Origin: Holosporales bacterium | GTDB lineage: Bacteria > Pseudomonadota > Alphaproteobacteria > UBA3830 > JAIRWN01 | Assembly: GCA_031267535.1 (NCBI GenBank) | Contig: JAIRYS010000002.1 | Location: forward strand, 4,326 to 68,325 | Reading direction: 5' to 3' | DNA length: 64,000 bases | Shown here: piece by piece, positions 2,443 through 44,727 of the stretch | Numbering within the stretch: the stretch's first letter is position 1 | How the letters are laid out: each line of letters opens with the position of its first letter | Position numbers and translations under genes: made by a program | Notes under the pieces: generated by a model | What the model saw: only the letters and a program-made list of their open reading frames with translations | The model's database searches: none | What the model was told of the DNA's origin: nothing

Positions 2443-3834
2443 CTATTCCAAAAAGGGAGGGTACTCAAAACTCCAACTCGTCGTGCCGTTCGGATTGTCT
2501 TTGACTGTAACGCAGAAGCGTTCTTTCAGTACGTCTCTAAGCTCGTCAGACTTCTGGAACTGTTTTTGGGCACGCGCCTTAATTCGCTCACTAATCAGGC
2601 CGTTGATTTCTTTCAGCTGGCCTTCTGTTACTTGACCTGCGCGTTTAGCGCCGATAGTGAAACCTAGCAGATGCATTGCTGCGCTCAAGCGCTGGATTAA
2701 CCCAGGATTCTCCTTCGGGTCACCACTTTGCCCAATTTGTTTGGCGAGTCCCACCATAAGCATAAGCGCTTTCGAAGTGTTGAGATCTTCACATAATGCC
2801 AGCATAATCGGATCGTTATGATCAAGCTCTTGATCGTCGTGCAGACTGTCTAAGCCGTCTGCAGCATTTGTCAGGCGATCAAAAGCGGCTTGCGCTTGCG
2901 CCAATCCACTGTCAGTCCAGTCTAGTGTTTTTGAATAATGTGTGGACAGTATGAAGTACTTCAGTACATTGCCGCTGTATTTCTTCAAAGCCGAGCTAAC
3001 TGTAACGATATTACCAAGGGACTTAGACATCTTTTTCCCGTCAACAAGCAACATGCCGTTATGCACCCAGTATTTTGCCATGCAAGACTTGCCCGAAGCG
3101 CACCGAGACTGCGCTATCTCGTTTTCATGATGCGGAAATATCAGGTCTTGGCCACCGCCATGAATATCAAAGGCATCCGATAAATATTTTGCGCTCATGG
3201 CAGAGCACTCTATATGCCATCCAGGTCGACCATATCCCCAAGGACTGTCAAAACCGGGATCATCGCCAACAGACGGTTTCCACAGCACAAAATCAAGCGG
3301 AGATTCTTTAAAAGGCGCGACTTCAACACGAGCGCCCGCAATCATTTCATCTGTATTTCTGTTCGACAGCTTGCCGTAAAGCGGGTCGCTGGAAACACGA
3401 AAAAGCACGTGATTTTCAGCTAAATACGCATGGTCCTTCTCTATTAGCTTTTGGATTATGTCTGTCATATCAGGGATGTGGTCGGTCGCACGTGGCTCAT
3501 GGGTTGGCGGTAAAAGACCAAGACAAGCCATCGTGTTTTGGTAATTCTTTAACGTTTCATCAGTCAGCCGCCTGATAGAAACACCCATTTCTCTGGCGCG
3601 ATTGTTAATCTTGTCGTCAATGTCCGTAATATTTCTTGCATATGTAACCTTAGGATAAAGGTGACGCAGAAGACGAAACAACACGTCAAACACAACCGCC
3701 GGACGCGCGTTGCCAACATGCGGCAAGTCATAAACAGTCGGCCCGCAGACATACATGCGCACATGACCGGGGTCGATTGGGGCGAAGGCTTCCGTCTTGT
3801 TGCTTAAGGTATTACGTATGGTCAGCTTGCTCAT
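2443..3834 (-). CDS. cysS: Cysteinyl-tRNA synthetase
   Basis: 463 aa. HIGH-type HVGNARP and KMSKSLGN motifs. 4-nt overlap with the upstream gltX. Confidence 0.95.
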   Translation of the reverse strand: MSKLTIRNTLSNKTEAFAPIDPGHVRMYVCGPTVYDLPHVGNARPAVVFDVLFRLLRHLYPKVTYARNITDIDDKINNRAREMGVSIRRLTDETLKNYQNTMACLGLLPPTHEPRATDHIPDMTDIIQKLIEKDHAYLAENHVLFRVSSDPLYGKLSNRNTDEMIAGARVEVAPFKESPLDFVLWKPSVGDDPGFDSPWGYGRPGWHIECSAMSAKYLSDAFDIHGGGQDLIFPHHENEIAQSRCASGKSCMAKYWVHNGMLLVDGKKMSKSLGNIVTVSSALKKYSGNVLKYFILSTHYSKTLDWTDSGLAQAQAAFDRLTNAADGLDSLHDDQELDHNDPIMLALCEDLNTSKALMLMVGLAKQIGQSGDPKENPGLIQRLSAAMHLLGFTIGAKRAGQVTEGQLKEINGLISERIKARAQKQFQKSDELRDVLKERFCVTVKDNPNGTTSWSFEYPPFLE

Positions 3835-5192
3835 TGCGCACCAGCTTGCAGTCGGGATTTTATTAAGTCTAATGACATAAGCTTCAGCATAGGCTTAAGC
3901 TCAGGTCCATGTTCTTGAGCAGTCAAACATAAACGTATTGGCGCGTACAGCTCGCGGCCGGATCTTTGGGTCTTTGATTTTATGTCGGCAAACCATCGTC
4001 CCCAATCCGATTGATAAGCGGAAGCGTTCCCTGTAAGCAAATCTAGGGCTGTTTTTAGTAAACTTTGGTCGGTTGAGGACATTCCGACTGGTTTGGCGAC
4101 GTTGCCGTATATAACATTCCACCACAATTTGGCCTCTTTAATCAGGGTTATGTTCCCGCGAATTAGCAACCAAAAGTCTTCGCCACCACCGTCCAGCCCG
4201 ACGGATTTAAGGCGTGATTCTGCGTCTTTATAAGACGTCTCAGATAAAAGGCTGTGGTTAAGCTTGTGTACCTCTTGATCATCAAACTTCGGCTCAGCTT
4301 TGCTGATTTTTGATATGTCAAAATCTTTAATCAAGTCGGTCATTGAGTTGCGAATTTCTATGGAATCGGAAGTCCCGAGTTTAGCTAACAAGCTGTTTAC
4401 CGCCATGGGTTCAATCCCTTCTTCTCGCCAGGTATTTATACTAAGCGCCGAAAAACGTTTGGAAAGTTCTTTGCCTCCTATATCGCGCAACAAGGGATAA
4501 TGACCAAACTTAATCGCAGATATATTCCCGCCAAGCGCTTTGTAAATATGCAGTTGTGACGCAGTGTTGGCTATATGGTCTGCGCCGCGGATTATGTGGG
4601 TGATTTGGCTGTTTATATCGTCAACAACCGATGCAAAAATATAGACAAAACTGCCGTCAGACTTGACTACAATCGGGTCGCTGGTGTTACCGGGCGAAAA
4701 TTCGATATGGCCATATATCATATCATCCCAAGACACGACGGCGTCCGCCAGCTTGAATCGCCAATGAGGCTTAATTCCACTCCGCTCAAGTTCTTTTTTC
4801 CTTACATCGCTTAGCTTAAGCGCAGATCTGTCGTATATCGGCGGCTTGCTGTTAGAAAGTTGAATCTTGCGCTTGAGGTCCAAATCTTCTTTGGATTCAT
4901 AGCACGGATACACCAGCCCCAGATCCTTAAGACGCCTAAAAGCGTTGTTGTAAGCGTCTATCCGGGACGACTGGCAAAATGTCTCGTCCCAACATATTTC
5001 AAGCCAGGAAAGGTCATTTTTTATCGCATTAGTATACTCCTCACGCGATCTTTCTTGATCGGTGTCGTCTATGCGAAGGATGAATTTTCCTCCGTGTTTT
5101 TTGACGAACAAATAGTTCAGTAATGCCGCGCGAATATTTCCTACGTGCAACATGCCGGTTGGGCTGGGGGCAAAACGGACTGTATAACTCAT
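3831..5192 (-). CDS. gltX: Glutamyl-tRNA synthetase, paralog 1
   Basis: 453 aa. RFAPSPTGMLHVGNIRAAL N-terminus and ELSKR loop. Forms an operon with cysS. Confidence 0.9.
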   Translation of the reverse strand: MSYTVRFAPSPTGMLHVGNIRAALLNYLFVKKHGGKFILRIDDTDQERSREEYTNAIKNDLSWLEICWDETFCQSSRIDAYNNAFRRLKDLGLVYPCYESKEDLDLKRKIQLSNSKPPIYDRSALKLSDVRKKELERSGIKPHWRFKLADAVVSWDDMIYGHIEFSPGNTSDPIVVKSDGSFVYIFASVVDDINSQITHIIRGADHIANTASQLHIYKALGGNISAIKFGHYPLLRDIGGKELSKRFSALSINTWREEGIEPMAVNSLLAKLGTSDSIEIRNSMTDLIKDFDISKISKAEPKFDDQEVHKLNHSLLSETSYKDAESRLKSVGLDGGGEDFWLLIRGNITLIKEAKLWWNVIYGNVAKPVGMSSTDQSLLKTALDLLTGNASAYQSDWGRWFADIKSKTQRSGRELYAPIRLCLTAQEHGPELKPMLKLMSLDLIKSRLQAGAQ

Positions 5193-5303
5193 ACGTTAAA
5201 GCCTGAACTCAGGCCAACTTATACCTAAAATAAGGCTTATTTTAAAATTGTTTCATAAACAAACTGTGACTATGCTGCTTGGTCAGACGCGTAAGGTGGC
5301 TTG

Positions 5304-6395
5304 ATGCGTATAGTTTTTGTTATCTCATCGCTTGGGTCAGGAGGGGCTGAGAAGGTCCTGTCGGGACTTGCCAACCGTTTTGTAACGAAAAACAATGAAG
5401 TATCAATTGTAACTTTCTCTCAAAAAGGCGCTGTTCCTTTCTATCCGCTTGATCCACATATAAGCCTAATACAACTGGATCAACTTAGAGAAGACACGTT
5501 TTGCCTAACGCGCTTAAAGAATATCGCTAAACGTATATTTTGCCTGAGAAAAATGCTGAAAGCCCTGGTTCCTGATGTGGTGATTTCTTTTATAGAGGTT
5601 ACAAATCTCACTGTTTTGATTGCCGGCATAGGCCTTAAGGCGCCAGTTGTTGTATCTGAGCGTACATCCATTAAAGATCATCAAATTCCAACGCTATACA
5701 AAAAATTACGCATGATTTTATACCGGAAAGCCGCTAAAGTCCTGACGCAAACTGAATCTAATAAACAATTGTTGAGTAATCTAAAGAATGTTCAAGTCAT
5801 ACCAAACGCAGTTACAGCCCCAAAACACCAGAAAAAACGCATGTGCTCTAAGGCAACAAACATCATCTCAACTGGGCGCTTGTGCCGGTCAAAAGACTTT
5901 GAGACTCTTATTAAAGCGTTTGCCGGCTTAGCGCCTCAATACCCCCAACTGAAACTGGCCATCTATGGCGATGGAGATAATAGAGCTAACCTTGAGAGCC
6001 TTATAGCTTCCTTTGGGCTTGAAGATAAGGTTTTCCTGCCCGGCGTTACTTCCGATGTGTACGGCGTTCTGCAAAAAGCGGATCTGTTTGTTTTTCCATC
6101 GCGATATGAAGGTTTTCCCAATGCTTTGTGCGAGGCTATGGCAGTCGGCCTTCCGGTTATAGCGTCTAATTGCCCAGGGAATATCGATGTTGTCAGAGAT
6201 AAAATCGACGGCCGACTCTTCCCGATTGGAAACGTAAATACTCTGACTGACCTAATGATTGAGCTGATTGAAGATTGCGAACAAAGACAACTCCTGTCCG
6301 ATAACGCACAACAAATAGTAACCAGATTTAATCCAGACGAGATATTTACGATGTGGGACCGGGTGGTTAACGAGGCCGCGAACCTTCGTAATTAA
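5304..6395 (+). CDS. GT-B (family 4-like) glycosyltransferase
   Basis: SSLGSGGAEK N-terminus and FPSRYEGFPNALCEAMAVGLPVIAS (EX7E region). ATG 5304 follows an AAGGTGG RBS; the track starts at TTG 5301. Confidence 0.85.
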   Translation: MRIVFVISSLGSGGAEKVLSGLANRFVTKNNEVSIVTFSQKGAVPFYPLDPHISLIQLDQLREDTFCLTRLKNIAKRIFCLRKMLKALVPDVVISFIEVTNLTVLIAGIGLKAPVVVSERTSIKDHQIPTLYKKLRMILYRKAAKVLTQTESNKQLLSNLKNVQVIPNAVTAPKHQKKRMCSKATNIISTGRLCRSKDFETLIKAFAGLAPQYPQLKLAIYGDGDNRANLESLIASFGLEDKVFLPGVTSDVYGVLQKADLFVFPSRYEGFPNALCEAMAVGLPVIASNCPGNIDVVRDKIDGRLFPIGNVNTLTDLMIELIEDCEQRQLLSDNAQQIVTRFNPDEIFTMWDRVVNEAANLRN

Positions 6396-7447
6396 TAGAG
6401 CGCTTTAAACGCTTGTCAAGCCGCCAAAAACACCAATCGCTTACGCCTGCATCAAATGCAGCCCGTATTTGCTGGTCAATTTGTTTATTGCCGTACTTTT
6501 GGTACGAATGAACGGGCAGCCAATTTGCAGTAAATCCCTGTAGGTAAGGGCGTATGACCGCTTTTGACTTATTGTTTTGCTTTTTGGCCTCGATCGCCTT
6601 TTGCAAAACTCTGTATACTATTTGGTACGGCTCAAGGTCCGGATGATCTATTCCCATTGAATTATCTCTATAATGAGACGGATAGATCATCGGACATATT
6701 ACATCCACCTTTTCCGATATAAGATTATAATCTTGGCCAATTCTCGCCGTAGCCTTAATGGTATCCTCGCCCAATGTGTCGGGAATAACACACCCAAACA
6801 CATCTACTGACACCTTAACTTTCAAGGATTTTAGCTCCTCCATAATAAAATCAAAGAACAATCCAATTATCTCTGTTCTTGAGGTTTTTTGCGCCAGCTC
6901 GCCATAGTCGGCCTCTTTATTTTCGAACGCAGAAAAACGTACGTAATCAAATTGTATCTCTAGAAAACCGGCTCTTGCTGCCGCCTTTGCTATATCTACC
7001 AAATATATCCAGTTTTTCTTTTCATAGGGATTTAACCAAACCATACCTTTCTTGTCCTGAAGGACGCTACCCCCCCCCCCCCCCTCCCTTGTTACGAACC
7101 GCAAGGCGCGGTATCAATCTGGCTCTGTAAGGATCCAAGAAAGCAACTATACGGGCGATTGGATATATTCTATGTTGCTTTAAAAGTCTGACAGCCGCTT
7201 TAACTTTGTCATTGCATATAATTTGGCCAAACTCATTTTTAACATCGACAACAACCGCATTGGCCGATACCTTTTTAGCAGTTGCGATTACTGAATAAAC
7301 ATCGTCTATCGAAGCAACGTATATACCGCGAATTGGTTCGCTTTCCAGCTTTCCGCTAGCTTGATCGTTTTTAGGTGCGCAGCAGAAAGTCAATACGGCA
7401 AAAATGACTAGTGTAAAACGATACGTTGGCATGTCACATTTTAGCAT
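6367..7447 (-). pseudogene. DUF4015 / GH-like putative polysaccharide hydrolase lipoprotein, frameshifted in a poly(G) tract
   Basis: Two ORFs (7067-7447 and 6367-7104) abut in different frames at the G15 run. Joined, they read ...AVRNK-GGGGG-SVLQDKKGMVWLNPYEKKNW...EIQFDYVRF, which is typical of the DUF4015 glycosyl-hydrolase-like domain. N-terminal signal MPTYRFTLVIFAVLTFCC. Confidence 0.75.
7070..7084. repeat. Homopolymer C15 on the + strand (G15 on the coding strand)
   Basis: Counted directly: c at 7070, ten c at 7071-7080 and four c at 7081-7084, followed by t and ccc. Confidence 0.95.
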
Positions 7448-16135: not shown

Positions 16136-16191
16136 GTTTCCCGGGCCGAACAATGTTTATACAAACATCTTGCCATATTATAAATAAAAAC

Positions 16192-16276
16192 TGGTGCGGT
16201 CGAGAAGACTCGAACTTCCACGAATTGCTTCACAGCGACCTCAACGCTGCGCGTCTACCAGTTCCGCCACGACCGC
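16192..16276 (-). tRNA. tRNA-Leu (anticodon GAG), CCA encoded
   Basis: Reverse complement: GCGGTCG-TG-GCG/GAACTGGTAGA/CGC-G-CAGCG/TTGAGGT/CGCTG, then a long variable arm (GAA-GCAA-TTC), then GGAAG/TTCGAGT/CTTCT-CGACCGC-ACCA. 85 nt, type II cloverleaf, folded by hand. Confidence 0.9.
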
Positions 16277-16397
16277 TTGACGACATTGGATAACAGAAAT
16301 ATCTGTAATCGACAATTGATTAATTCAGCTACAGATCAAGTTTCGTTTTGGCTTTGGCCAGAGTCTTGTATACTGCTGCAGGTCAGCCAATATAAAT

Positions 16398-19166: not shown

Positions 19167-19878
19167 GTTTTTGGCGTTTATATCTGCAGTGTGGGCAGCG
19201 CTGTGCAGCGCGGATAGCGGCTCAATCGACGTAAGTGCCGGAAGTGTCACGTTAGATCAGAGCGCTAAAACTGTATCGCTAAAAGATGGAGTCGTGGCTA
19301 AACTTGACGGCGGCCAAATTACCTCAAAAACAGCGGAGGCTCGTTTGAACGAGTCAGACGATGTATCAAACCCCAGCGAAGTACTGTTGAGCGGAGATGT
19401 AAGCGGGTGTTTGTCCGATATTGAAATGTCTGCGGATCAAGCGCAATACACTGTGCAGGACGGTTCTTTAGTGCTGTCAGGACGACCGGCCGTTGTAAAA
19501 ACGAAACGAGAAACGGTTTCCGCTGGCTCGATAACATTAAAAGGGCTTGTTGTTACCGCAGAAAACGGCGTTACACTAAAAAGCGCCAATCACACAATCG
19601 CAACTGAAAAGGCCATCGCTTATTTTTCAAGAACAAACGGTAAAGTATCGCTTAAAAGCGTAGTCTCAGGTGGTAAGGTGATCATAGTGTCTGCTAAAAC
19701 AACTTACACAGCGGATAAATGTGAATACAAAGATGGCGTGCTGTGCCTGGCAGGTAATGTAGTTATAAAAAGCGCCAAAAACTGTATTTTGGCCGATAGG
19801 GCTAAATTGAACACAACAACCGGAGTACACGTAATCGAAGGCGTAAACAGCCCCATTAGCGCGAGTTTGCACAAATAA
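19132..19878 (+). CDS. lptA: LptA/OstA-like periplasmic LPS-transport protein
   Basis: Signal MFIRCWGLGLFRFLAFISAVWAALCSA followed by repetitive beta-rich segments. Positioned between kdsD and lptB. The start choice is inferred. Confidence 0.6.
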   Translation: MFIRCWGLGLFRFLAFISAVWAALCSADSGSIDVSAGSVTLDQSAKTVSLKDGVVAKLDGGQITSKTAEARLNESDDVSNPSEVLLSGDVSGCLSDIEMSADQAQYTVQDGSLVLSGRPAVVKTKRETVSAGSITLKGLVVTAENGVTLKSANHTIATEKAIAYFSRTNGKVSLKSVVSGGKVIIVSAKTTYTADKCEYKDGVLCLAGNVVIKSAKNCILADRAKLNTTTGVHVIEGVNSPISASLHK

Positions 19879-20627
19879 TGGACAAAAAACCTCAGACCGG
19901 CTTAGTGGTCAACAAAATCTCAAAGACCATAGGTCTTCGCCGTAAGAAGAAGGTGTTGATAGATGAGCTTAGCCTTCAAGTTCAGCAAGGTCAAATCGTT
20001 GCTTTGCTGGGGCCTAACGGCGCAGGCAAAACCACCTGCTTTTCGGTTATATGCGGTCTGACTAAGCTAGATTCCGGCAACATATATATAAACGGACAAG
20101 AAGTAACGCGAATGCCGATGTATAAGCGCGCTCGGATGGGACTTGGATATCTTCCGCAAGAATCTTCTGTATTCAGAGGGCTTAATGTACAAGAGAATAT
20201 ACTGGCTGTCCTGGAGGCAATTGAACCTGACAAAGACCTCCAGCAACAAGAACTCGAAAGGCTTCTTGAAAGCTTTTCAATTGCCCACTTGCGATATAAC
20301 ACTTCGGTTACGTTATCCGGTGGAGAGCGCAGGCGTCTTGAAATAGCGCGTGCTCTGGCGACTAAACCGCAATTCATTTTGCTTGACGAACCTTTGGCTA
20401 GCATAGATCCAATCGCCATTCAGGATATGCGCACGCTGATTATGCAGCTTAAATCGGCTGGTATCGGGATACTCATCACCGATCATAACGTAATTGATAC
20501 GCTGAAGATTGCAGAATATGCGTACATAATGTACGAAGGGAAGATTTTAACCGAAGGCCCTACAAAAGAAATCATGAATGACAAAATCGCAAGACGTTTG
20601 TATTTGGGAAATGACTTTGATGCGTAG
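19878..20627 (+). CDS. lptB: LPS export ABC transporter ATPase
   Basis: Walker A GPNGAGKTT, signature LSGGERRRLEIARAL and Walker B ILLDEP. TAATG overlap with lptA. Confidence 0.92.
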   Translation: MDKKPQTGLVVNKISKTIGLRRKKKVLIDELSLQVQQGQIVALLGPNGAGKTTCFSVICGLTKLDSGNIYINGQEVTRMPMYKRARMGLGYLPQESSVFRGLNVQENILAVLEAIEPDKDLQQQELERLLESFSIAHLRYNTSVTLSGGERRRLEIARALATKPQFILLDEPLASIDPIAIQDMRTLIMQLKSAGIGILITDHNVIDTLKIAEYAYIMYEGKILTEGPTKEIMNDKIARRLYLGNDFDA

Positions 20628-20678: not shown

Positions 20679-21917
20679 ATGATTGAATTTGCCAAATCTT
20701 TGCTCAGGCCGACCTGGCGTAAAGTTTATCCAAAGATTCATAAATTCAAAACATCATTGAAAACGTTCAACGTTAGATTGGACAGATTGTTATGCGGTGG
20801 CGCCAATGGCATAAGAGCAGCGAAATACGCGGAGCTGATGGACGATTTTCTACTGCCTTCCAGACCGGCATCACAAAGTCCCCACACGGAGTTGCTTAAG
20901 GATTTTGATAAGCTGGGGATGAAGGTATTGCAAGATGATTTTCTGCAGCAAACTGAGTATTACAAGTATGCAGAAAAATGTATGCGTCTTACTGGATGCT
21001 TTTTCTATGATAGGCCAGACAAAATAAAAATATTGGCTGAGCGCTTTATCAGGCAGTATAAGGGTGAGGTTCTTGACCTCCCAAGACAGCCCGGGCAGAG
21101 TGATGCTGGACCTATTTGGCTAAGACCGATCAAATTCTCAAGCTACTACGAAATAATAGACGGCCATCATAGGGTTGCCAGAGCCATTATGACTGGGCAG
21201 AAAACGGTCCCCGCAATTCTATACGACGCCGTTCCAGTTCTAACCCCATTGCAGCAATTACTGCTGGATGTCATGTGGATTAGCAATCACAGATGGCTTT
21301 ACCAGCCGGTACATTCACCAGAAATAGAGGAGCAGTGGATTTTGGTGAGGAATTGCCAGGATAGACTTGATATGATGAATAATTTTCTGAACAGCAAGGC
21401 ATTTAATACAACAGGCGCCGGCTATCTGGACGTTGGCTCAAGTAATGGTTGGTTTGTAAAACAAATGGAAGACAAGGGCTTGCGTGCTTGCGGTATAGAT
21501 CGCGATCCGTTTGGCATTGAAGTAGGGTTTAGGATGTACGGCCTTAAGCCAGAGCAAATCGCCCATTCAGATATAGCTATAGGCTTGGGAAAAATGGTAT
21601 CGCGAGGCGATATGTTCGATTTTACATCATGTATGAGCATCATGCACCATTTTGTCCTGGGCAAAACTTCCTATACACCTGAGCATCTCTTAAAGTTGCT
21701 GGATAAAATCACCAAGCAAGTGATGTTTTTTGATACAGGTGAAGAACATGAGCAGGCTTTCGGAGAAACACTGAATGGTTGGAGTTCAGAGCATATTCAG
21801 AACTGGATATTGTCTAATTCTTCGTTTAAGGAAGTAATCCCTCTGGGACGAGATAATGACAGAAAACCTCCGTTTCAGGGCTACTATAACAGAACGCTGT
21901 TCGCTTGTGTTAAGTAG
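20679..21917 (+). CDS. ParB/Srx-like domain fused to a class I SAM-dependent methyltransferase
   Basis: 412 aa. YYEIIDGHHRVARAIMTGQKTVPAILYD (ParB-like DGHHR core), then YLDVGSSNGWFVKQMEDKGLRACGIDRDP (MTase motif I plus the acidic beta2 end) and FDFTSCMSIMHHF. Confidence 0.7.
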   Translation: MIEFAKSLLRPTWRKVYPKIHKFKTSLKTFNVRLDRLLCGGANGIRAAKYAELMDDFLLPSRPASQSPHTELLKDFDKLGMKVLQDDFLQQTEYYKYAEKCMRLTGCFFYDRPDKIKILAERFIRQYKGEVLDLPRQPGQSDAGPIWLRPIKFSSYYEIIDGHHRVARAIMTGQKTVPAILYDAVPVLTPLQQLLLDVMWISNHRWLYQPVHSPEIEEQWILVRNCQDRLDMMNNFLNSKAFNTTGAGYLDVGSSNGWFVKQMEDKGLRACGIDRDPFGIEVGFRMYGLKPEQIAHSDIAIGLGKMVSRGDMFDFTSCMSIMHHFVLGKTSYTPEHLLKLLDKITKQVMFFDTGEEHEQAFGETLNGWSSEHIQNWILSNSSFKEVIPLGRDNDRKPPFQGYYNRTLFACVK

Positions 21918-22328
21918 AATATATCATGTGCTTGACAGCGTCCAAACCATCAAAGCGCTGAGTTTAAGCTAAATGGCCAACACAGCATTCGGTAATACAT
22001 GTTCGTGATAAATTAGAGTTCAGATTTAACCTCTTATACTGCGCCAATAAAGCGCTGTGTAGCTATCCCACCGAGTTCACACACTGACCCCCAGCAACAC
22101 CTTGAGCGTATCAATCGAACAACCCCATGCGAATCGCAGTCACACGCCAGAAGACGTCAACCGGACTCTTGCTGGTTTTATTTGCCTTCACTGTGTAATT
22201 ATCAAAGCCAACAAAGCCTTGGCTCGGGATAAATAGCACTTTAGGCTCCGGGAACTCTGCTTCAAACAAAACGCAGGCTTTCTCTCCCGGACGTCTTGAG
22301 ATTTGTGTTTAGGTAAAATTTAGCTAAA

Positions 22329-26190: not shown

Positions 26191-28368
26191 TTAATCCAAA
26201 GATACGCTATGTCCGGCCGCATCGATTATTTTTAGCGGCTTTTCGTATATTCCCAGGTTGCCGAATTTTCGAAGGAGTTTTGTAGTTATTGTGCGACCAG
26301 CTAAGGCGTCTGGGCGATTTGCGCCGGGCCTTAGATCGATCAGCAACTCTGTCTTAAGCAGCATATTAGATAACGTATCATCAGATATCTCTGAATCATG
26401 CGGAATAAGCAGCAGTTTGCCAAAATTCAGCAAAAAATAATCGCAAGTTTGTTTTTCAATTTTGCTGCATCCAACGCTAAGCGCCCAATGTTTCATCGTA
26501 TTCCTGGCGCGTATTTTGGTGTTAACGATTGCAGTGTCGCCAGAACGTATGGCAAAAGCCCGGCCATCGCTGTGTATAAATAAACAGGGCTTAGGCGATA
26601 CGGTATACAATCCAAGCGATAAGATGATACCCAATAGGCCGACAATTCGCCACTTTCGCCGCCATATGACAAGCCACAGAAATGAAAGGACAAAAATTGA
26701 CAGCGTGGTTTTTGTCGGTGTTGGGCAAACGATTTGGGATCCTGGCAGATTTGATACAAAATTTGCGATATTTATCAATTGTGCAATCGACCAATTAACA
26801 ACGTTGAAACCAATATTGGCCGCTGCCGACCACCAACACGATGCAAGCACAAACGTCAAGCCGGGAATAATGACAAACCCAACCAATGGAATTGCCAAAA
26901 CATTTGAAGGAATGCTGTTCAAAGTAAGCAAGTTGAAGAAATTAACCGTAAATGGAATAACGCTTAGAGAAGCGGCTGTGGTCGAACAGATCGTTGACAA
27001 AATATACACGCCTAATTTTGACGTTCGTTTTTCGCGGGAGCGGTTGAAAAAGTTCTTAATAAACTTGGTTTCGTACGTTGCTATCAGTGTTGCGGTTGCT
27101 GCAAATGACATCTGAAAACCAGGCAGGAAAATCGATTCCGGCGCAAAAAGTACGATAAGGGCGGCAGCAATGGCCAGCGACCTCATTGACAGAGGCTTGC
27201 GGTCTGTCAACACGCCCAAAATCACAATGAAATACGCCACCAGCGCCCTTGTAGCGGGGACTTTATTGCCAGATATAAACAAGTACGCTATCGCTGCAAT
27301 CAGCGAAATTACAGCGGCAATCTTCTTGGTGTTATATCTAAGCGTTATGATCGGGATCATGGCAAAAATCCACCTGAAAACTGTAAATATAACGCCGCCA
27401 AAAATGCACATGTGAAGGCCGGAAATCGCCAAAATATGCGCCATTCCGGCATTAGCAAAGCTACTTCTTATGTTCTGGTTCACCAGCGGGTCTCCGGTAA
27501 TCAGCGCACAAGCGATTGTGTACTGATTGTGATCTAGATGACGTTTAAAATAAGCGTTGATGGCCGATCTTACCTTGTAGATTAATGCTGTTGGCCTGTT
27601 GGTTGAGCAAGATATAACCTTAGGCGGCGAGAACAGTATGCCGTTTGCGCCGATACCCCTGAGGACGGCAATCTGTCGACTGTCAAAATCACCATAATAC
27701 TGAGGTCGCCGAAGCGAAAACAGCATGGCGTTGATTTTCGCCACGCTTTGCGGCAACAACTTGTCGTCCTCAACCATAAGGTCGCGAATGCGCCCCTTGG
27801 TCGTAACTTTAATTTTGGAATGAAGCAGAGCAGGTGGTATATCTTCATCATCGGATAACTCCTCCACCGTAGCGGTTAAAGCCGTGCTGTTAGAAGAATG
27901 ATCAATGTTGTTTATTCTGACCTTACATGACAGCGAGATAGAATCGGCAATCTCAAAAGTAAGATGGTTGCGCATTTCTGCCGCCAAAAAGCCGGCAGCG
28001 GTTGCCGCTAAGATTGCAAATGACTCAAGGTAAAGCTTTTTGACGATAAACAGGCATGTCACAAAAATAATCGCCGCCAAACAATAAGACGCTTTTTCTT
28101 GGCAAACAGCAATAATTACGCCGATTCCAATAAAAAGCGGAAGCCAGCAAAACCAGCGTCGCTTCTCTTCGATCAGATTGTTCCACAAGGTGTGATAAAA
28201 TGATAAGCTGCGCAATGTTGGGCTCGTATTGAGGGATCTTAAAGCGTCCAATGATATTGTCTGCGAGGTTCTGTGTCCATTATTACCAGGTTTGCGCCGT
28301 CTCCAACTGGTTTTTTGCATATCGGCGGAGCGCGCACAGCCCTGTTTAATTGGCTGTTTGCCAGACAT
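26191..28368 (-). CDS. comEC: ComEC/Rec2-family DNA internalization channel protein
   Basis: 725 aa, polytopic. MAHILAISGLHM competence-domain motif. The N-terminal 30 or so codons overlap divergent gltX2, so the true start may be internal (e.g. ATG 28320). Confidence 0.8.
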   Translation of the reverse strand: MSGKQPIKQGCARSADMQKTSWRRRKPGNNGHRTSQTISLDALRSLNTSPTLRSLSFYHTLWNNLIEEKRRWFCWLPLFIGIGVIIAVCQEKASYCLAAIIFVTCLFIVKKLYLESFAILAATAAGFLAAEMRNHLTFEIADSISLSCKVRINNIDHSSNSTALTATVEELSDDEDIPPALLHSKIKVTTKGRIRDLMVEDDKLLPQSVAKINAMLFSLRRPQYYGDFDSRQIAVLRGIGANGILFSPPKVISCSTNRPTALIYKVRSAINAYFKRHLDHNQYTIACALITGDPLVNQNIRSSFANAGMAHILAISGLHMCIFGGVIFTVFRWIFAMIPIITLRYNTKKIAAVISLIAAIAYLFISGNKVPATRALVAYFIVILGVLTDRKPLSMRSLAIAAALIVLFAPESIFLPGFQMSFAATATLIATYETKFIKNFFNRSREKRTSKLGVYILSTICSTTAASLSVIPFTVNFFNLLTLNSIPSNVLAIPLVGFVIIPGLTFVLASCWWSAAANIGFNVVNWSIAQLINIANFVSNLPGSQIVCPTPTKTTLSIFVLSFLWLVIWRRKWRIVGLLGIILSLGLYTVSPKPCLFIHSDGRAFAIRSGDTAIVNTKIRARNTMKHWALSVGCSKIEKQTCDYFLLNFGKLLLIPHDSEISDDTLSNMLLKTELLIDLRPGANRPDALAGRTITTKLLRKFGNLGIYEKPLKIIDAAGHSVSLD

Positions 28369-29676
28369 ATGGGCGGAAAGTTTCTGCTGCGCATAGAAGA
28401 TACTGACCGTGAACGTTCTACCCGAGAAGCTGTTGATGCGATTTTTTCTGGACTTAAGTGGCTTGGATTAAATTGGGATGGCGAGGCAGTGTTTCAGTTT
28501 GCACGAGCGCCTAAGCACCGCGAGGTGGTTGATGAGCTGCTAAAAAGCGGGAACGCTTACTATTGCTACTGTTCGCAGGAAGAATTAGCCGCAATGAGAG
28601 ACCAGGCCAAAGCTGCTGGCCTAGCGCCAAAATACAATGGGTACTGGCGCGACCGCGACCCTAAACTGGCCCCGGTTGATATAAAGCCGGTTGTAAGGCT
28701 TAAAGCTCCAGCCGTTGGGAAAACTGTCCTGAACGACTTGGTACAAGGAACGGTCATTACCGATAATAATCAGCTTGACGATATGATACTTCTGCGCAGC
28801 GATGGAACCCCAACTTATATGCTTTCTGTCGTTGTGGATGATCATGATATGGGCGTTACGCATGTGATCCGGGGCGATGATCATCTGACCAACACGTTCC
28901 GCCAGATCCAGATATACCAAGCCATGTCATGGCAAACGCCAGAATTTGGTCATATACCGCTTATACACGGGCCAGACGGAGCCAAAATGTCCAAAAGGCA
29001 TGGGGCTTTGGGGGTCGACGCTTATAAGGCTATGGGCATGTTGCCGCAGGCTATGTGCAATTATTTACTGCGTTTGGGCTGGGCGCACGGCGATGATGAA
29101 ATTATCCCGACCGAACAAGCCGTTCAGTGGTTCAACATCGAAGGCATAGGTAAGTCGCCGGCTAGATTCGATATGAATAAATTGTTAAGCCTGAACGCGC
29201 ATTATCTAAGGCAAACCGCCAATGACCAACTTGCCGATGAAATTTCCGAATTCCTGCCTAAAGATGTATCCGAAAAATTGAAAGAAGCCGGTTATCGGCA
29301 GCGAGCGGTCTCAGGAATGGACGGCCTTAAGCAAAGGGCAAAAACGCTTCTTGAATTGGCAGAAGGGGCAAAATTCTATCTGCTTGACGCGCCTCTGCCA
29401 ATGGACAGCGAACTAAAATCACTGCTGAATAAAGCTGAAAGCCAAGAAATTCTGGGAAAGTTAATTAAGTTGCTTGAATCCTTTGGTGAGTGGAACGAAA
29501 GCAGCTTGCACAGTATGGTCAAAGAGTTTTCTGAAGGCTTAGAGGTTGGATTGGGGCATGTGGCTAAACTGGTACGCGCAGCTTTGACCGGAAGCAACAT
29601 ATCACCCAGCATATTTGAGATAATGCAAGTTTTTGGCAAGCAAGAAACCTTAAGTCGCCTAAGAACAAAGTACTAA
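28273..29676 (+). CDS. gltX: Glutamyl-tRNA synthetase, paralog 2
   Basis: RFAPSPTGFLHIGGARTAL and KMSKR. GTG start. Confidence 0.93.
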   Translation: MSIITRFAPSPTGFLHIGGARTALFNWLFARHMGGKFLLRIEDTDRERSTREAVDAIFSGLKWLGLNWDGEAVFQFARAPKHREVVDELLKSGNAYYCYCSQEELAAMRDQAKAAGLAPKYNGYWRDRDPKLAPVDIKPVVRLKAPAVGKTVLNDLVQGTVITDNNQLDDMILLRSDGTPTYMLSVVVDDHDMGVTHVIRGDDHLTNTFRQIQIYQAMSWQTPEFGHIPLIHGPDGAKMSKRHGALGVDAYKAMGMLPQAMCNYLLRLGWAHGDDEIIPTEQAVQWFNIEGIGKSPARFDMNKLLSLNAHYLRQTANDQLADEISEFLPKDVSEKLKEAGYRQRAVSGMDGLKQRAKTLLELAEGAKFYLLDAPLPMDSELKSLLNKAESQEILGKLIKLLESFGEWNESSLHSMVKEFSEGLEVGLGHVAKLVRAALTGSNISPSIFEIMQVFGKQETLSRLRTKY

Positions 29677-43100: not shown

Positions 43101-44609
43101 TTATTTAGCTATAGCGTCTGGTCTGTTAGCGGTTATAGCGGCAAACTGCTTACTTAGACCGTATACAGCAACGATCCACATGCAAGCAACAAATAAGAAA
43201 ACAATGCCGATAATTGGCGACAGATCAAACAGCGTCCAGCCCGGAAACAAAAACAACAACAGTTGTTGAATCGCTGCGCCACCAGATTTACCGAAGCGGC
43301 CGCCGACCACTTCAACTGCCGCTTTGCCTTTAATCTTTAGCTCATCGTCCAGCGGGATGTACGACATTTCCTTGGTTGCGTCAAACAGTGAATACTTTGT
43401 GGATTTCGCCAAAACATTTTGCGCAAAGCCTATATAAACCGCCAGCCCAATTGGTGCAATTGTTAGCCCGGCCAGCATAGGGTCGAGCAGGTATCCATAC
43501 ACTACAAAGAAGAAAAACAGTACGCCTGTTACCGCTATCATAACCGGGGTGACTACAGCGCTAGTGAACCAGCTGAATCGGCGAACAATGTTCATGCCGA
43601 TAAGCATCATAACCAAAGCTGCAGTGCCTGTATACATCTGCAAGCGTCCCATGATGGCGTTATATTCAGTGCTGTGCGAGCAGAAAGCACGCATACGGTC
43701 TTTCCAGATGCCTTCAACCAAGTTTATGCTTACGCCATAACATATGATCAGCAGCACGATATATCCCAGATATTTTGACGTAAATATGTACTTAAAGCTT
43801 TCGCCCAAAGACATTTTAGCTTTCTTCTTTTTTGTTTTGCCTGCATTAGCCTCTGGATCATAGAAACGCTTATCGGTTAGAACGTTCCTCTCCATCCACC
43901 AGTATATACACATAATTATGACGCAAGACGAAATGACAAAGATCATGATGCTGTGAAGAGAACTGTCCCAAGCCGCGATGTTTTTGCCGCTGCTGGAGAG
44001 CTTGACTACAAGATTGCCGGCGGCTATTGCGCCAAAGTTACTGAAAAAACCAAACATACTGTAGAAACGTCTAGCTTCCTTCAGATTGGTAATCTCATTT
44101 GCATACTGCCAGAACATGAGCGATATCATCACGCTGCCCCAAAGCTCCGCCATTATATAAAACAAGGACAGCGTCCAATTGCCGGCAATCAACAGCAGCC
44201 ACCTGAATCTAGGCCAAGACGCTATAACGGCAGTAAGATCCGGATGCAAAGCATCTCTGTTGGGATACAGGAAAGACACAAACAATACGAGGTATAGAGC
44301 AAAAAAAGAGGTTACTGAATAGAACAGCTTTGGACGGTCTAAGACATTAGCCAGCTTCGAATAAACCAACATAAATATGACCGCGCTGGGCAACACGGCA
44401 AACAGCTTAAGGGCGCTTATGATTTCAGCTCCACAAAGCGGAACTATCAACGCGTCTTTCGTACAGCGCAAGGTGCTGTAGTTAAAGACGATAAACAGCA
44501 TCATAAAAGCTATTGGCAAAAATTTCTTAAGTTCAAAATTGTGTATAGGCCAAAGAATCGAACGGAAACCCTTAAACTCAGCTTCCTGAGCCTTTGCTGC
44601 TTTAGACAT
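43101..44609 (-). CDS. tlc: ATP/ADP translocase (TLC-family nucleotide transporter)
   Basis: About 500 aa, 12 TM segments. ILWPIHNFELKKFLPIAFMMLFIVFNYSTLRCTKDALIV. ATG 44609 is preceded by AAAGAGGGA; the track starts at 44633. Confidence 0.9.
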   Translation of the reverse strand: MSKAAKAQEAEFKGFRSILWPIHNFELKKFLPIAFMMLFIVFNYSTLRCTKDALIVPLCGAEIISALKLFAVLPSAVIFMLVYSKLANVLDRPKLFYSVTSFFALYLVLFVSFLYPNRDALHPDLTAVIASWPRFRWLLLIAGNWTLSLFYIMAELWGSVMISLMFWQYANEITNLKEARRFYSMFGFFSNFGAIAAGNLVVKLSSSGKNIAAWDSSLHSIMIFVISSCVIIMCIYWWMERNVLTDKRFYDPEANAGKTKKKKAKMSLGESFKYIFTSKYLGYIVLLIICYGVSINLVEGIWKDRMRAFCSHSTEYNAIMGRLQMYTGTAALVMMLIGMNIVRRFSWFTSAVVTPVMIAVTGVLFFFFVVYGYLLDPMLAGLTIAPIGLAVYIGFAQNVLAKSTKYSLFDATKEMSYIPLDDELKIKGKAAVEVVGGRFGKSGGAAIQQLLLFLFPGWTLFDLSPIIGIVFLFVACMWIVAVYGLSKQFAAITANRPDAIAK

Positions 44610-44727
44610 TTGTCCCTCTTTTGAAAGTACCAAAATGTATACAACCCATCATAAACTTTTGCAACCCCATTTTCCGATAATGTCACACAAACCTAGCTAC
44701 AAAGCCAATTGCCTTATTTCACGCATT

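Follow-up and report, generated by a model that had tools for sequence, protein, structure and literature searches.

We analysed a 64,000-nucleotide stretch of the genome of a Holosporales bacterium (contig JAIRYS010000002.1 of assembly GCA_031267535.1; this whole stretch is referred to as the window) and focused on the gene that directly follows lptB. This complete coding sequence (20679..21917, + strand) has an ATG start and encodes a 412-residue protein identical to GenBank MDR1365509.1, which derives from a Holosporales metagenome-assembled genome (MAG) and bears the automatic name 'ParB/RepB/Spo0J family partition protein'. The protein is built of two modules, an N-terminal ParB/Srx-like half and a C-terminal methyltransferase half, and a full-length AlphaFold model of it has a predicted local distance difference test (pLDDT) score of 94.2 and a predicted template modelling score of 0.87. 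We propose, at what we consider about even chances, that the gene product is a cytoplasmic glycan-modifying enzyme that is a functional analogue of WbdD but has a different kinase module. WbdD is the bifunctional kinase and phosphate methyltransferase that terminates the O antigen of E. coli O9a and K. pneumoniae O3 (PDB 4azs, 4azw, 4uw0).

In the proposed mechanism, the ParB/Srx module would bind a nucleotide, most likely ATP, through its DGHHR P-motif and move a phosphate to a sugar hydroxyl on an undecaprenyl-diphosphate-linked glycan, such a lipid-linked glycan being the presumed substrate. The C-terminal methyltransferase would then transfer a methyl group from S-adenosylmethionine (SAM) to this phosphate, leaving the glycan with a methyl-phosphate substituent or cap. 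In lineages in which the gene follows that for a Wzt protein with a Wzt_C domain, the product would be an export-licensing terminal cap, and in the commoner Wzx-flippase clusters the repeat unit would be decorated. In the Holosporales endosymbiont the gene would have moved to its present place as the last gene of the kdsB-kdsD-lptA-lptB operon, with a lipopolysaccharide (LPS)-linked glycan or the LPS core as candidate targets. An earlier note on this DNA, made from the sequence alone, had considered a bifunctional enzyme for phosphotransfer and methylation conceivable; on the basis of WbdD-type residues and a SerK-type P-motif this is now the best-supported reading, with the kinase activity predicted. 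The open reading frame (ORF) and the peptides quoted in that note are all present in the translation: YYEIIDGHHRVARAIMTGQKTVPAILYD (residues 157-184), YLDVGSSNGWF (residues 249-259), CGIDRDP (residues 271-277) and DFTSCMSIMHHF (residues 314-325, of which residues 320-325 are SIMHHF).

Profile and fold comparisons identify the C-terminal half (residues 202-412; 21282..21914, + strand) as a WbdD-type class I SAM-dependent methyltransferase domain with a conserved phosphate-handling site. The hidden Markov model (HMM) matches of the single sequence were weak, and a family profile of 36 members gave a much clearer picture. When this profile was aligned with hhalign to that of the WbdD-type chain-terminating methyltransferases (stand-alone 'O-antigen chain-terminating methyltransferases' of 220-250 residues, found with a WbdD fragment), the match covered 196 columns and residues 202-412 with a probability of 99.0% and an E value of 3.3e-18. 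Searched against the PDB, it matched the WbdD methyltransferase domain at E 1e-9 and the next solved methyltransferase at 7e-5. The WbdD match reaches N-terminally of the Rossmann core, across an invariant 'LYQP...VRxCxDR' segment. A Foldseek search with the window model likewise placed WbdD first, followed by the RNA-capping enzyme MePCE, with UbiG and ToxA also among the fold matches. The Pfam Methyltransf_23 match of the single sequence is weak (E 0.01, under the curated cut-off), and the domain is detected in 33 of the 36 family members.

All six WbdD functional residues are kept in the window protein. The L207-Y208-Q209-P210 segment (21297..21308) contains the counterpart of WbdD Y16, Y208, and among the 206 full-length homologues used for all conservation frequencies Y208 is found in 88%, Q209 in 100% and P210 in 99%. 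It is followed by R224...D228-R229 ('VRNCQDR'; 21348..21365), in which R229 corresponds to the SAM ligand R36 of WbdD and both arginines are 95% conserved. Methyltransferase motif I, YLDVGSSNGWF (21423..21455), aligns with 'VLDLGCAQGFF' of WbdD and has an invariant D251 and G257. In the segment G272-I-D274-R-D276 (21492..21506), D274 corresponds to the SAM ligand D82; position 274 is D or E in 99.5% of members and D276 is present in 96%. The pair H323-H324 (21645..21650; 91% and 88% conserved) matches the essential, phosphate-binding H132 and H133. Finally, R405 (21891..21893; 92% conserved) is the equivalent of WbdD R203, as hhalign aligns 'YGR-TLFAC' with the WbdD-type 'xxR-PLF'; the position of R203 was obtained by a count that starts at Y16 in P0260, a 65%-identical WbdD homologue. 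All these motifs lie on the + strand.

In WbdD, none of Y16, H132, H133 and R203 can be dispensed with for methylation of the sugar-3-phosphate, the Y16F mutant being inactive, and R36 and D82 bind SAM (PMC3482155). R203 was singled out by the authors of that study as conferring use of a phosphate nucleophile, and R203, H132 and H133 have no equivalent in O8 WbdD, which methylates a hydroxyl without a kinase (PMC3482155). As a point to be weighed against this assignment, the His-His pair is found too in some methyltransferases that act on groups other than phosphate (PMC3482155), so the phosphate assignment rests mainly on R405 and Y208. On homology and these active-site residues, the C-terminal module probably methylates a phosphate.

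The fold comparisons also bear on whether the protein might be a small-molecule or natural-product methyltransferase, for example of the quinone/UbiG-like type, with no connection to glycans. Some members give weak matches to UbiG, ChlM and RquA models, UbiG and ToxA appear among the fold matches as noted above, the Joint Genome Institute (JGI) name of some members is 'benzoquinol methylase', and a few loci, such as that of Methylocystis (L003), have no glycan genes nearby. Nevertheless, WbdD scores four to five orders of magnitude better than UbiG at the profile level, the generic methyltransferase matches are all far under their curated cut-offs, and both domain fusions with glycosyltransferases and flippases and the neighbourhood statistics described below indicate glycans. 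We therefore consider this alternative very unlikely.

The N-terminal half is modelled as a divergent ParB/Srx fold with a SerK-type P-motif. The protein begins with a basic amphipathic helix (residues 2-28; 20682..20762, + strand) assigned by DSSP, with a net charge of up to +6 and a hydrophobic moment of 0.41-0.51; its sequence varies across the family, and it may mediate peripheral membrane association. The module proper spans residues 29-200 (20763..21278, + strand; model pLDDT 94.2) and has conserved positions at L38, G40, S61, P68, Y94 and G106. A separate AlphaFold model of residues 1-205 also had a pLDDT of 94.2, and its top 50 fold matches in the PDB were all ParB/Srx proteins (ParB-CTP complexes, sulfiredoxin, KorB, Noc, SerK, PadC and SbnI). 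In sequence order, the secondary structure comprises a first strand (residues 30-33), the helical insertion (about 47-127), two strands (146-151 and 157-161), the P-motif helix (163-171) and a further strand (176-181). The roughly 140 N-terminal residues, in which no motif had been recognized before, are not a separate domain: the strand at 30-33 and the insertion fold together with the ParB/Srx core as one confidently modelled module.

The ParB/Srx core itself (strand, strand, P-motif helix, strand; residues 144-186; 21108..21236, + strand) is matched by ParB_N, parB_part and SerK profiles. For the window protein, Pfam ParB_N (PF02195) gives E 0.047 and 14.2 bits against a gathering cut-off of 26.3, with 1 of the 36 members at E < 0.01. 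NCBIfam SerK (NF053625) gives E 0.0015 and 17.7 bits against a cut-off of 380, matching only residues 144-183, and TIGR00180 parB_part gives 14.9 bits against a cut-off of 58.45. Matches below the cut-offs are found among the 36 members for parB_part (9/36), SerK (8/36) and SbnI (1/36), and the ParB_N, TIGR00180, SerK and SbnI models independently match the same 40 residues. SerK is the sole PDB match of the N-terminal profile (E 0.03-0.07; SerK residues 52-89). The earlier note had read a ParB/Srx fold from the core motif and had proposed checking it with HMMs and a structure prediction; the HMM scores fall below their cut-offs and the structural matches of the model bear the assignment out.

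The P-motif of this core, D161-G-H-H-R165 (21159..21173, + strand), is of the GxxR type and takes the place of the 'GERR' of ParB, the absence of which had been pointed out before, and of the 'GCHR' of sulfiredoxin. It is identical to the SerK pentapeptide at SerK residues 69-73. The frequencies at the five positions are 86% for D, 98% for G162, 55/33% for H/N, 96% for H164 and 91% for R165, and 85 of the 87 genomic loci retain an intact GxHR. The arginine of the GxxR (Box II) P-motif is required for nucleotide binding, as judged with an R-to-A control, and a ParB-SAM-methyltransferase fusion whose kinship to the window family is unverified bound ATP in vitro through this arginine (PMC12704722). 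The 'bactMethyltransferase23' protein tested in that survey, likewise of unverified family membership, comes from Alphaproteobacteria bacterium UBA3002 (GCA_002346425.1, DDZS01000068.1 gene 24; PMC12704722). Whether the ParB/Srx module supplies the phosphate as a kinase seems to us evenly poised.

A ParB-like module next to a methyltransferase could also point to DNA, either as a partition or nucleoid protein or as a ParB-DNA methyltransferase of mobile elements. This possibility draws on the GenBank name, on the weak TIGR00180 match and on a 2025 survey of ParB-CTPase-fold proteins that counts Methyltransf_23 among the predicted DNA-methylase fusion partners enriched in phages (PMC12704722). 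The TIGR00180 score is nonetheless far below its cut-off, and the window protein has no helix-turn-helix (HTH), GERR motif, dimerization domain, adjacent parA or DPPY motif. The nearest approach to (D/N/S)PP(Y/F) is KPPF at residues 397-400 and there is no PF01555 match. Searches of 50,697 phage and 72,556 plasmid records gave no match to the family, structures in BFVD match the methyltransferase half only, and the genomic context is consistently that of polysaccharide synthesis. A partition protein or DNA methylase is effectively refuted by this evidence from domains, motifs, cut-offs, phage and plasmid records and BFVD, leaving a DNA-related function scarcely tenable, and the GenBank label 'ParB partition protein' is wrong. 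The conserved motifs, fold matches and lack of phage or plasmid matches agree with the earlier description of a ParB/Srx domain joined to a class I SAM methyltransferase, as distinct from the ParB-N6/N4 type. A role in anti-phage defence was also considered and rejected: PADLOC reported nothing for the window protein, and one homologue gave a weak generic methyltransferase match (mad2, E 9e-5).

The source of the phosphate can be addressed by asking which kinases accompany the methyltransferase. Four viral contigs encode only the methyltransferase half (203-222 residues, 31-35% identity, corresponding to residues ~201-412), and in 4/4 of them this gene abuts or overlaps that of an APH-family kinase (Pfam APH E 1.8e-21 in L092). 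Among about 85 loci with the fused form, an APH kinase was found within 10 kb in one genome only, as the partner of a methyltransferase of its own; the HMM behind this search derives from four APH sequences, and divergent kinases may have escaped it. Therefore, methyltransferases of this clade are always accompanied either by a conventional kinase, neighbouring or fused, or by a ParB/Srx module.

These data can be set against the alternative that the methyltransferase is the sole catalyst and the ParB/Srx module a non-catalytic binder of nucleotide or phosphate. The module could then be a switch, dependent on ATP or CTP, that gates the methyltransferase, or serve as a handle for the diphosphate of an undecaprenyl-diphosphate-linked glycan or for the nucleotide of a nucleoside diphosphate (NDP)-sugar. 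The methyl acceptor could in that case be a phosphate that a different enzyme has supplied or, as with O8-type WbdD, a sugar hydroxyl. ParB-fold proteins are mostly nucleotide-binding switches or scaffolds, and binding is not proof of catalysis (PMC12704722). Methylation of a hydroxyl by O8 WbdD involves no kinase, the methyltransferase is intact in two members whose P-motif is degenerate, position 42 is poorly conserved, and in close relatives the gene is always followed by an NTP_transferase, 4,6-dehydratase and DegT module, which is compatible with an NDP-sugar substrate. Yet the counterparts of R203, H132 and H133, which mark phosphate-methylating WbdD off from O8 WbdD, are conserved in the family; no alternative kinase lies near the fused form whereas the stand-alone versions always have one; the P-motif matches that of the kinase SerK, not the switch-type GERR; and there is no HTH or dimerization domain for a clamp-type switch. 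On balance we think a non-catalytic ParB/Srx module, the main rival to our proposal, rather unlikely.

Several observations weigh against the reading in which the ParB/Srx module phosphorylates and the methyltransferase caps. We know of no carbohydrate kinase of the ParB/Srx fold. The fold matches are marginal (E 0.014 or higher, probability up to 0.99) and, because the top 50 are all ParB/Srx proteins that align over only 60-90 columns, the fold assignment holds, but for a minimal core. Every sequence score for ParB/Srx lies under its curated cut-off. No counterpart of the catalytic Glu30 of SerK can be aligned; the candidate is position 42, which is E in 62%, Q in 17% and D in 7% of members and Ala in the window protein. 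In two loci, L029 and L067, the P-motif is degenerate while all methyltransferase residues are kept, and no APH kinase is nearby. A separate APH kinase would be predicted near such members, and none is present near these two; the test is uninformative. The contexts of the family are mostly Wzx-dependent, and no methyl-phosphate-adding enzyme characterized for the Wzx pathway was found in the literature searched. The family also has no coiled-coil ruler of the kind present in all characterized terminators (PMC11231755). Finally, catalysis by both modules is, for every family member, a prediction from sequence and models.

The P-motif arginine is lost in a subclade that includes L029 and L067 (Thermodesulfovibrionales/Nitrospirae) and the proteins P0066, P0070, P0072, P0074 and P0080, in which the motif reads DGTHS, EDAHN or similar. 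This subclade keeps every methyltransferase active-site residue, and both of its genomic examples, L029 and L067, lie directly after a Wzt-like ABC ATPase.

The neighbourhoods of kinase and methyltransferase genes offered further observations. In a gammaproteobacterial locus (L001, member P0056), a pair consisting of a methyltransferase (302 residues) and an APH kinase (319 residues) is encoded 3 kb from the family gene in the same polysaccharide cluster (5422-7286), so that this one cluster may hold two methyl-phosphate systems. In the viral contigs, the APH kinase and clade methyltransferase are accompanied by GlcNAc-type glycosyltransferases in L092 (6225-10492), by three ORFs that look like 2-oxoglutarate-dependent oxygenases and one resembling a short-chain dehydrogenase/reductase in L093 (5094-9367), and by an ORF resembling a cytochrome P450 in L095 (5785-9778); the oxygenases and the P450 were judged by appearance. 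The best structural matches in BFVD are giant-virus methyltransferases, including a methyltransferase-glycosyltransferase fusion. These arrangements suggest virus-encoded methyl-phosphate modification of glycans.

The link to glycans comes from the genomic context, which for this family is that of glycan clusters. We counted neighbours within ±9 kb of the gene in 87 loci. A GT2 glycosyltransferase is present in 37/87 loci (19 taxa), Wzz in 23 (12 taxa), a flippase-type protein in 21 (12 taxa; two of three sampled match Polysacc_synt), an initiating Bac_transf transferase in 11 (10 taxa) and a GT4 glycosyltransferase likewise in 11 (7 taxa), and at least 61 of the 87 loci have one or more of these. 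The counts are lower bounds because naive ORF calling in high-GC loci yielded antisense and merged clusters. Family proteins are also fused to other domains: to GT2 in two proteins, to a GT25 LPS glycosyltransferase, to malectin/PKD domains, and to Wzx-type flippase domains (MatE in one protein and Polysacc_synt_3 in another).

A Wzt-type ABC ATPase is encoded immediately upstream in five loci from four taxon groups. The Wzt_C domain is recognizable in two of these, both from Acidobacteria (L025 and L026), and Wzt-like ATPases are found in L014, L029 and L067. In the O9a WbdD paradigm, Wzt_C binds the terminal cap and licenses export (PMC3482155, PMC11231755). No Wzm/Wzt transporter was seen in the window, and most loci have Wzx flippases instead.

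The close relatives of the window protein (49-58% identity; from Paracaedibacteraceae and a Francisellaceae MAG) are not encoded beside lptB. Their gene has nonulosonic-acid genes on one side and on the other a conserved module that comprises NTP_transferase, 4,6-dehydratase, DegT, ketoisomerase and GT2 genes. Co-occurrence with LPS and 3-deoxy-D-manno-octulosonic acid (Kdo) genes, which the earlier note had suggested testing, thus holds in two Holosporales MAGs and fails elsewhere, where the gene is found in general polysaccharide clusters, including those of Gram-positive Actinomycetes. An LPS/Kdo-specific function as a general property was rejected because the close relatives are not beside lptB, with this adjacency conserved only within Holosporales, and because many hosts are Gram-positive.

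Two upstream neighbours recur. In the closest relatives a protein of 551-604 residues is encoded directly upstream (L009 6183-7997 and L010 6334-7989); its precomputed annotation is Pfam PF27859 (LIC12162), a family that takes its name from a Leptospira gene and has no assigned function, and our Pfam scan of the L010 copy gave no match. In actinomycete loci of the Nocardioides type, the recurrent immediate upstream neighbour is a sulfotransferase-domain protein of 684 residues (L080 7941-9995 and 11 other loci), which suggests that the glycans made there carry several anionic decorations.

Comparison with known systems helps to place the family. Its methyltransferase domain is homologous to that of WbdD, and like WbdD it joins two activities, predicted here, in a single polypeptide encoded in polysaccharide clusters, in some lineages beside a Wzt with Wzt_C. 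The partner module differs: it is N-terminal and of the ParB/Srx type, whereas that of WbdD is a C-terminal eukaryotic-like protein kinase. The window protein ends with the methyltransferase at residue 412; neither the Pfam scan nor the model revealed an APH or Pkinase match, and DSSP analysis of the pLDDT-94 model found no long C-terminal helix. Unlike WbdD, the family lacks the coiled-coil molecular ruler and the C-terminal region for membrane and polymerase recruitment, and it resides mostly in Wzx-flippase rather than ABC-transporter clusters, with many members in Gram-positive Actinomycetes.

An experimental precedent for swapping the kinase module in methyl-phosphate terminators is the N-terminal methyltransferase-kinase of K. 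pneumoniae O7 ORF6 (PMC11231755). Fusion to GT2 modules occurs in part of the window family and of the O7 family alike. The O7 kinase, however, is AmiN/APH-like, with a protein-kinase-like fold, and CgnL is the nearest relative of the O7 methyltransferase (PMC11231755); O7 ORF6 further has a coiled coil and a carbohydrate-binding module, and no ParB/Srx module. For the N-terminal half, the relevant comparison is with the free serine kinases SerK and SbnI (PDB 5x0b, 5ujd), which share the DGHHR P-motif and whose surrounding strand-strand-helix core is the best sequence match. They provide a precedent for phosphoryl transfer to a hydroxyl by the ParB/Srx fold, SerK being a proven kinase. In contrast to them, only about 40-60 residues align, and the window family has a helical insertion of about 80 residues, no SerK C-terminal domain and a substrate that is predicted to be a glycan instead of free serine.

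Two further comparisons concern the methyltransferase. The ParB-Methyltransf_23 and ParB-SAM-methyltransferase fusions of the 2025 survey, of which one from an Alphaproteobacteria MAG was tested, have the same architecture at the Pfam level, but they are regarded there as predicted DNA methyltransferases and phage-enriched (PMC12704722), whereas the window family is chromosomal and glycan-linked. MePCE/Bin3, the 7SK RNA gamma-phosphate methyltransferase (PDB 6dcc, 5una) that ranks second among the structural matches, likewise has a phosphate oxygen as its methyl acceptor; unlike the window family it is a eukaryotic RNA-capping enzyme without a kinase partner, and no sequence-level relationship was detected. 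Taking these comparisons together, we rate the family as a putative variant of the kinase/methyltransferase glycan cappers with a non-homologous nucleotide-binding module.

The family is widespread and uncharacterized. A word-indexed search returned 141 full-length relatives with identities down to about 33%, and a HMMER scan of 1.84 billion representatives gave 431 matches at E ≤ 0.001 and 147 at E ≤ 1e-30. The family comprises at least 147 clusters at 50% identity. The whole 412-residue architecture is kept across it, including the N-terminal region. A scan of GTDB species genomes identified hosts among Francisellaceae, Gammaproteobacteria, Acidobacteriota, Planctomycetota, Nitrospirota, Lentisphaerota and Bdellovibrionales, and many cultured Actinomycetes (Actinomadura, Nocardioides, Spirillospora, Thermomonospora echinospora, Pimelobacter simplex and Nonomuraea), including Pimelobacter simplex ATCC 6946 (L030) and Thermomonospora echinospora DSM 43163 (L021). 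Our literature search did not find the family described as a glycan enzyme, and the architecture is mentioned only as a presumed DNA methyltransferase (PMC12704722). The phyletic survey that had been proposed for this architecture thus revealed a broad distribution and not an already characterized family. One member, P0134 (993 residues), is fused at its C terminus to ATP-grasp and low-molecular-weight phosphotyrosine phosphatase domains, a further link of the family to phosphate chemistry.

At the window locus, lptB (an ABC_tran gene; 19878..20627, + strand) ends 51 bp before the target gene. We scanned this gap for promoter-like and terminator-like sites and none was present; the two genes are probably co-transcribed. 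The target gene terminates the string uppP(bacA)-galU-ugd-asd-kdsB-kdsD-lptA-lptB, and it is followed by a non-coding gap of 411 bp (21918..22328) and then by a gene for a hybrid histidine kinase, in agreement with the position and the approximately 410-bp gap described before. The gap contains a single weak terminator-like hairpin (22159-22177), and a search of it for a gene remnant detected none. The idea that it represents the decayed nucleotide-sugar module of the relatives was rejected, as no similarity was detected. In a second Holosporales MAG (L096), the target gene also adjoins lptB, and the downstream genes differ. Between these two orthologues (90% identity) the ratio of nonsynonymous to synonymous substitution rates is 0.043; because of this low ratio, the target gene is judged to be under strong purifying selection and functional.

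Other features of the region were noted. L096 has a PIN/PhdYeFM toxin-antitoxin pair between ugd and asd (4736-5366), where the window has only a 262-bp gap (16136-16397). The window encodes a TLC-family ATP/ADP translocase (43101-44633, - strand; Pfam TLC, E 1.9e-177), a hallmark of obligate intracellular bacteria, which fits the Holosporales origin of the window. A GT4 glycosyltransferase gene (5301-6395, + strand), whose product is 47-51% identical to GT4 proteins in polysaccharide clusters of Paracaedibacteraceae and Francisellaceae, adjoins a gene for a DUF4015 'putative glycosyl hydrolase' (6367-7104, - strand); glycan genes appear to be scattered in this reduced Holosporales genome. Class I tRNA synthetase genes of the Glu/Gln type (tRNA-synt_1c) occur at two separate places (3831-5192, - strand, and 28273-29676, + strand), with an anticodon-binding domain recognizable only in the latter. 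A BspA-type leucine-rich-repeat protein (1139-1768, + strand; LRR_5, E 2e-17) is a possible host-interaction factor in the endosymbiont.

The most far-reaching form of our proposal seems to us possible but a little short of an even chance. It holds that the ParB/Srx module is a true lipid-linked-glycan kinase, the first sugar kinase of its fold, which displaced the unrelated protein-kinase-like domain of WbdD-type enzymes, that in many phyla, Gram-positive Actinomycetes among them, the family installs methyl-phosphate on surface polysaccharides, Wzx/Wzy-dependent ones included, and that the Holosporales enzyme, co-transcribed with lptB, methyl-phosphorylates LPS. This work shows the names 'ParB partition protein' and 'benzoquinol methylase' to be a systematic mis-annotation and offers a functional reading for the ParB-Methyltransf_23 architecture, which was assumed to be a DNA methylase in the 2025 survey (PMC12704722). 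The hypothesis is directly testable in cultured hosts, among them Pimelobacter simplex ATCC 6946, Thermomonospora echinospora DSM 43163, Actinomadura and Nocardioides spp. The ParB/Srx fold has so far been known for CTP switches, sulfiredoxin and serine kinases, and the proposal, if true, would widen its catalytic range to glycan phosphorylation. Methyl-phosphate modification of surface glycans is known from a few enterobacterial O antigens, and to our knowledge no enzyme is known to install it in Wzx/Wzy-dependent glycans or in Gram-positive Actinomycetes. If the proposal is correct, this modification would be far commoner, found beyond ABC-transporter pathways and in Acidobacteriota, Planctomycetota, Nitrospirota, Actinomycetes and intracellular Alphaproteobacteria.

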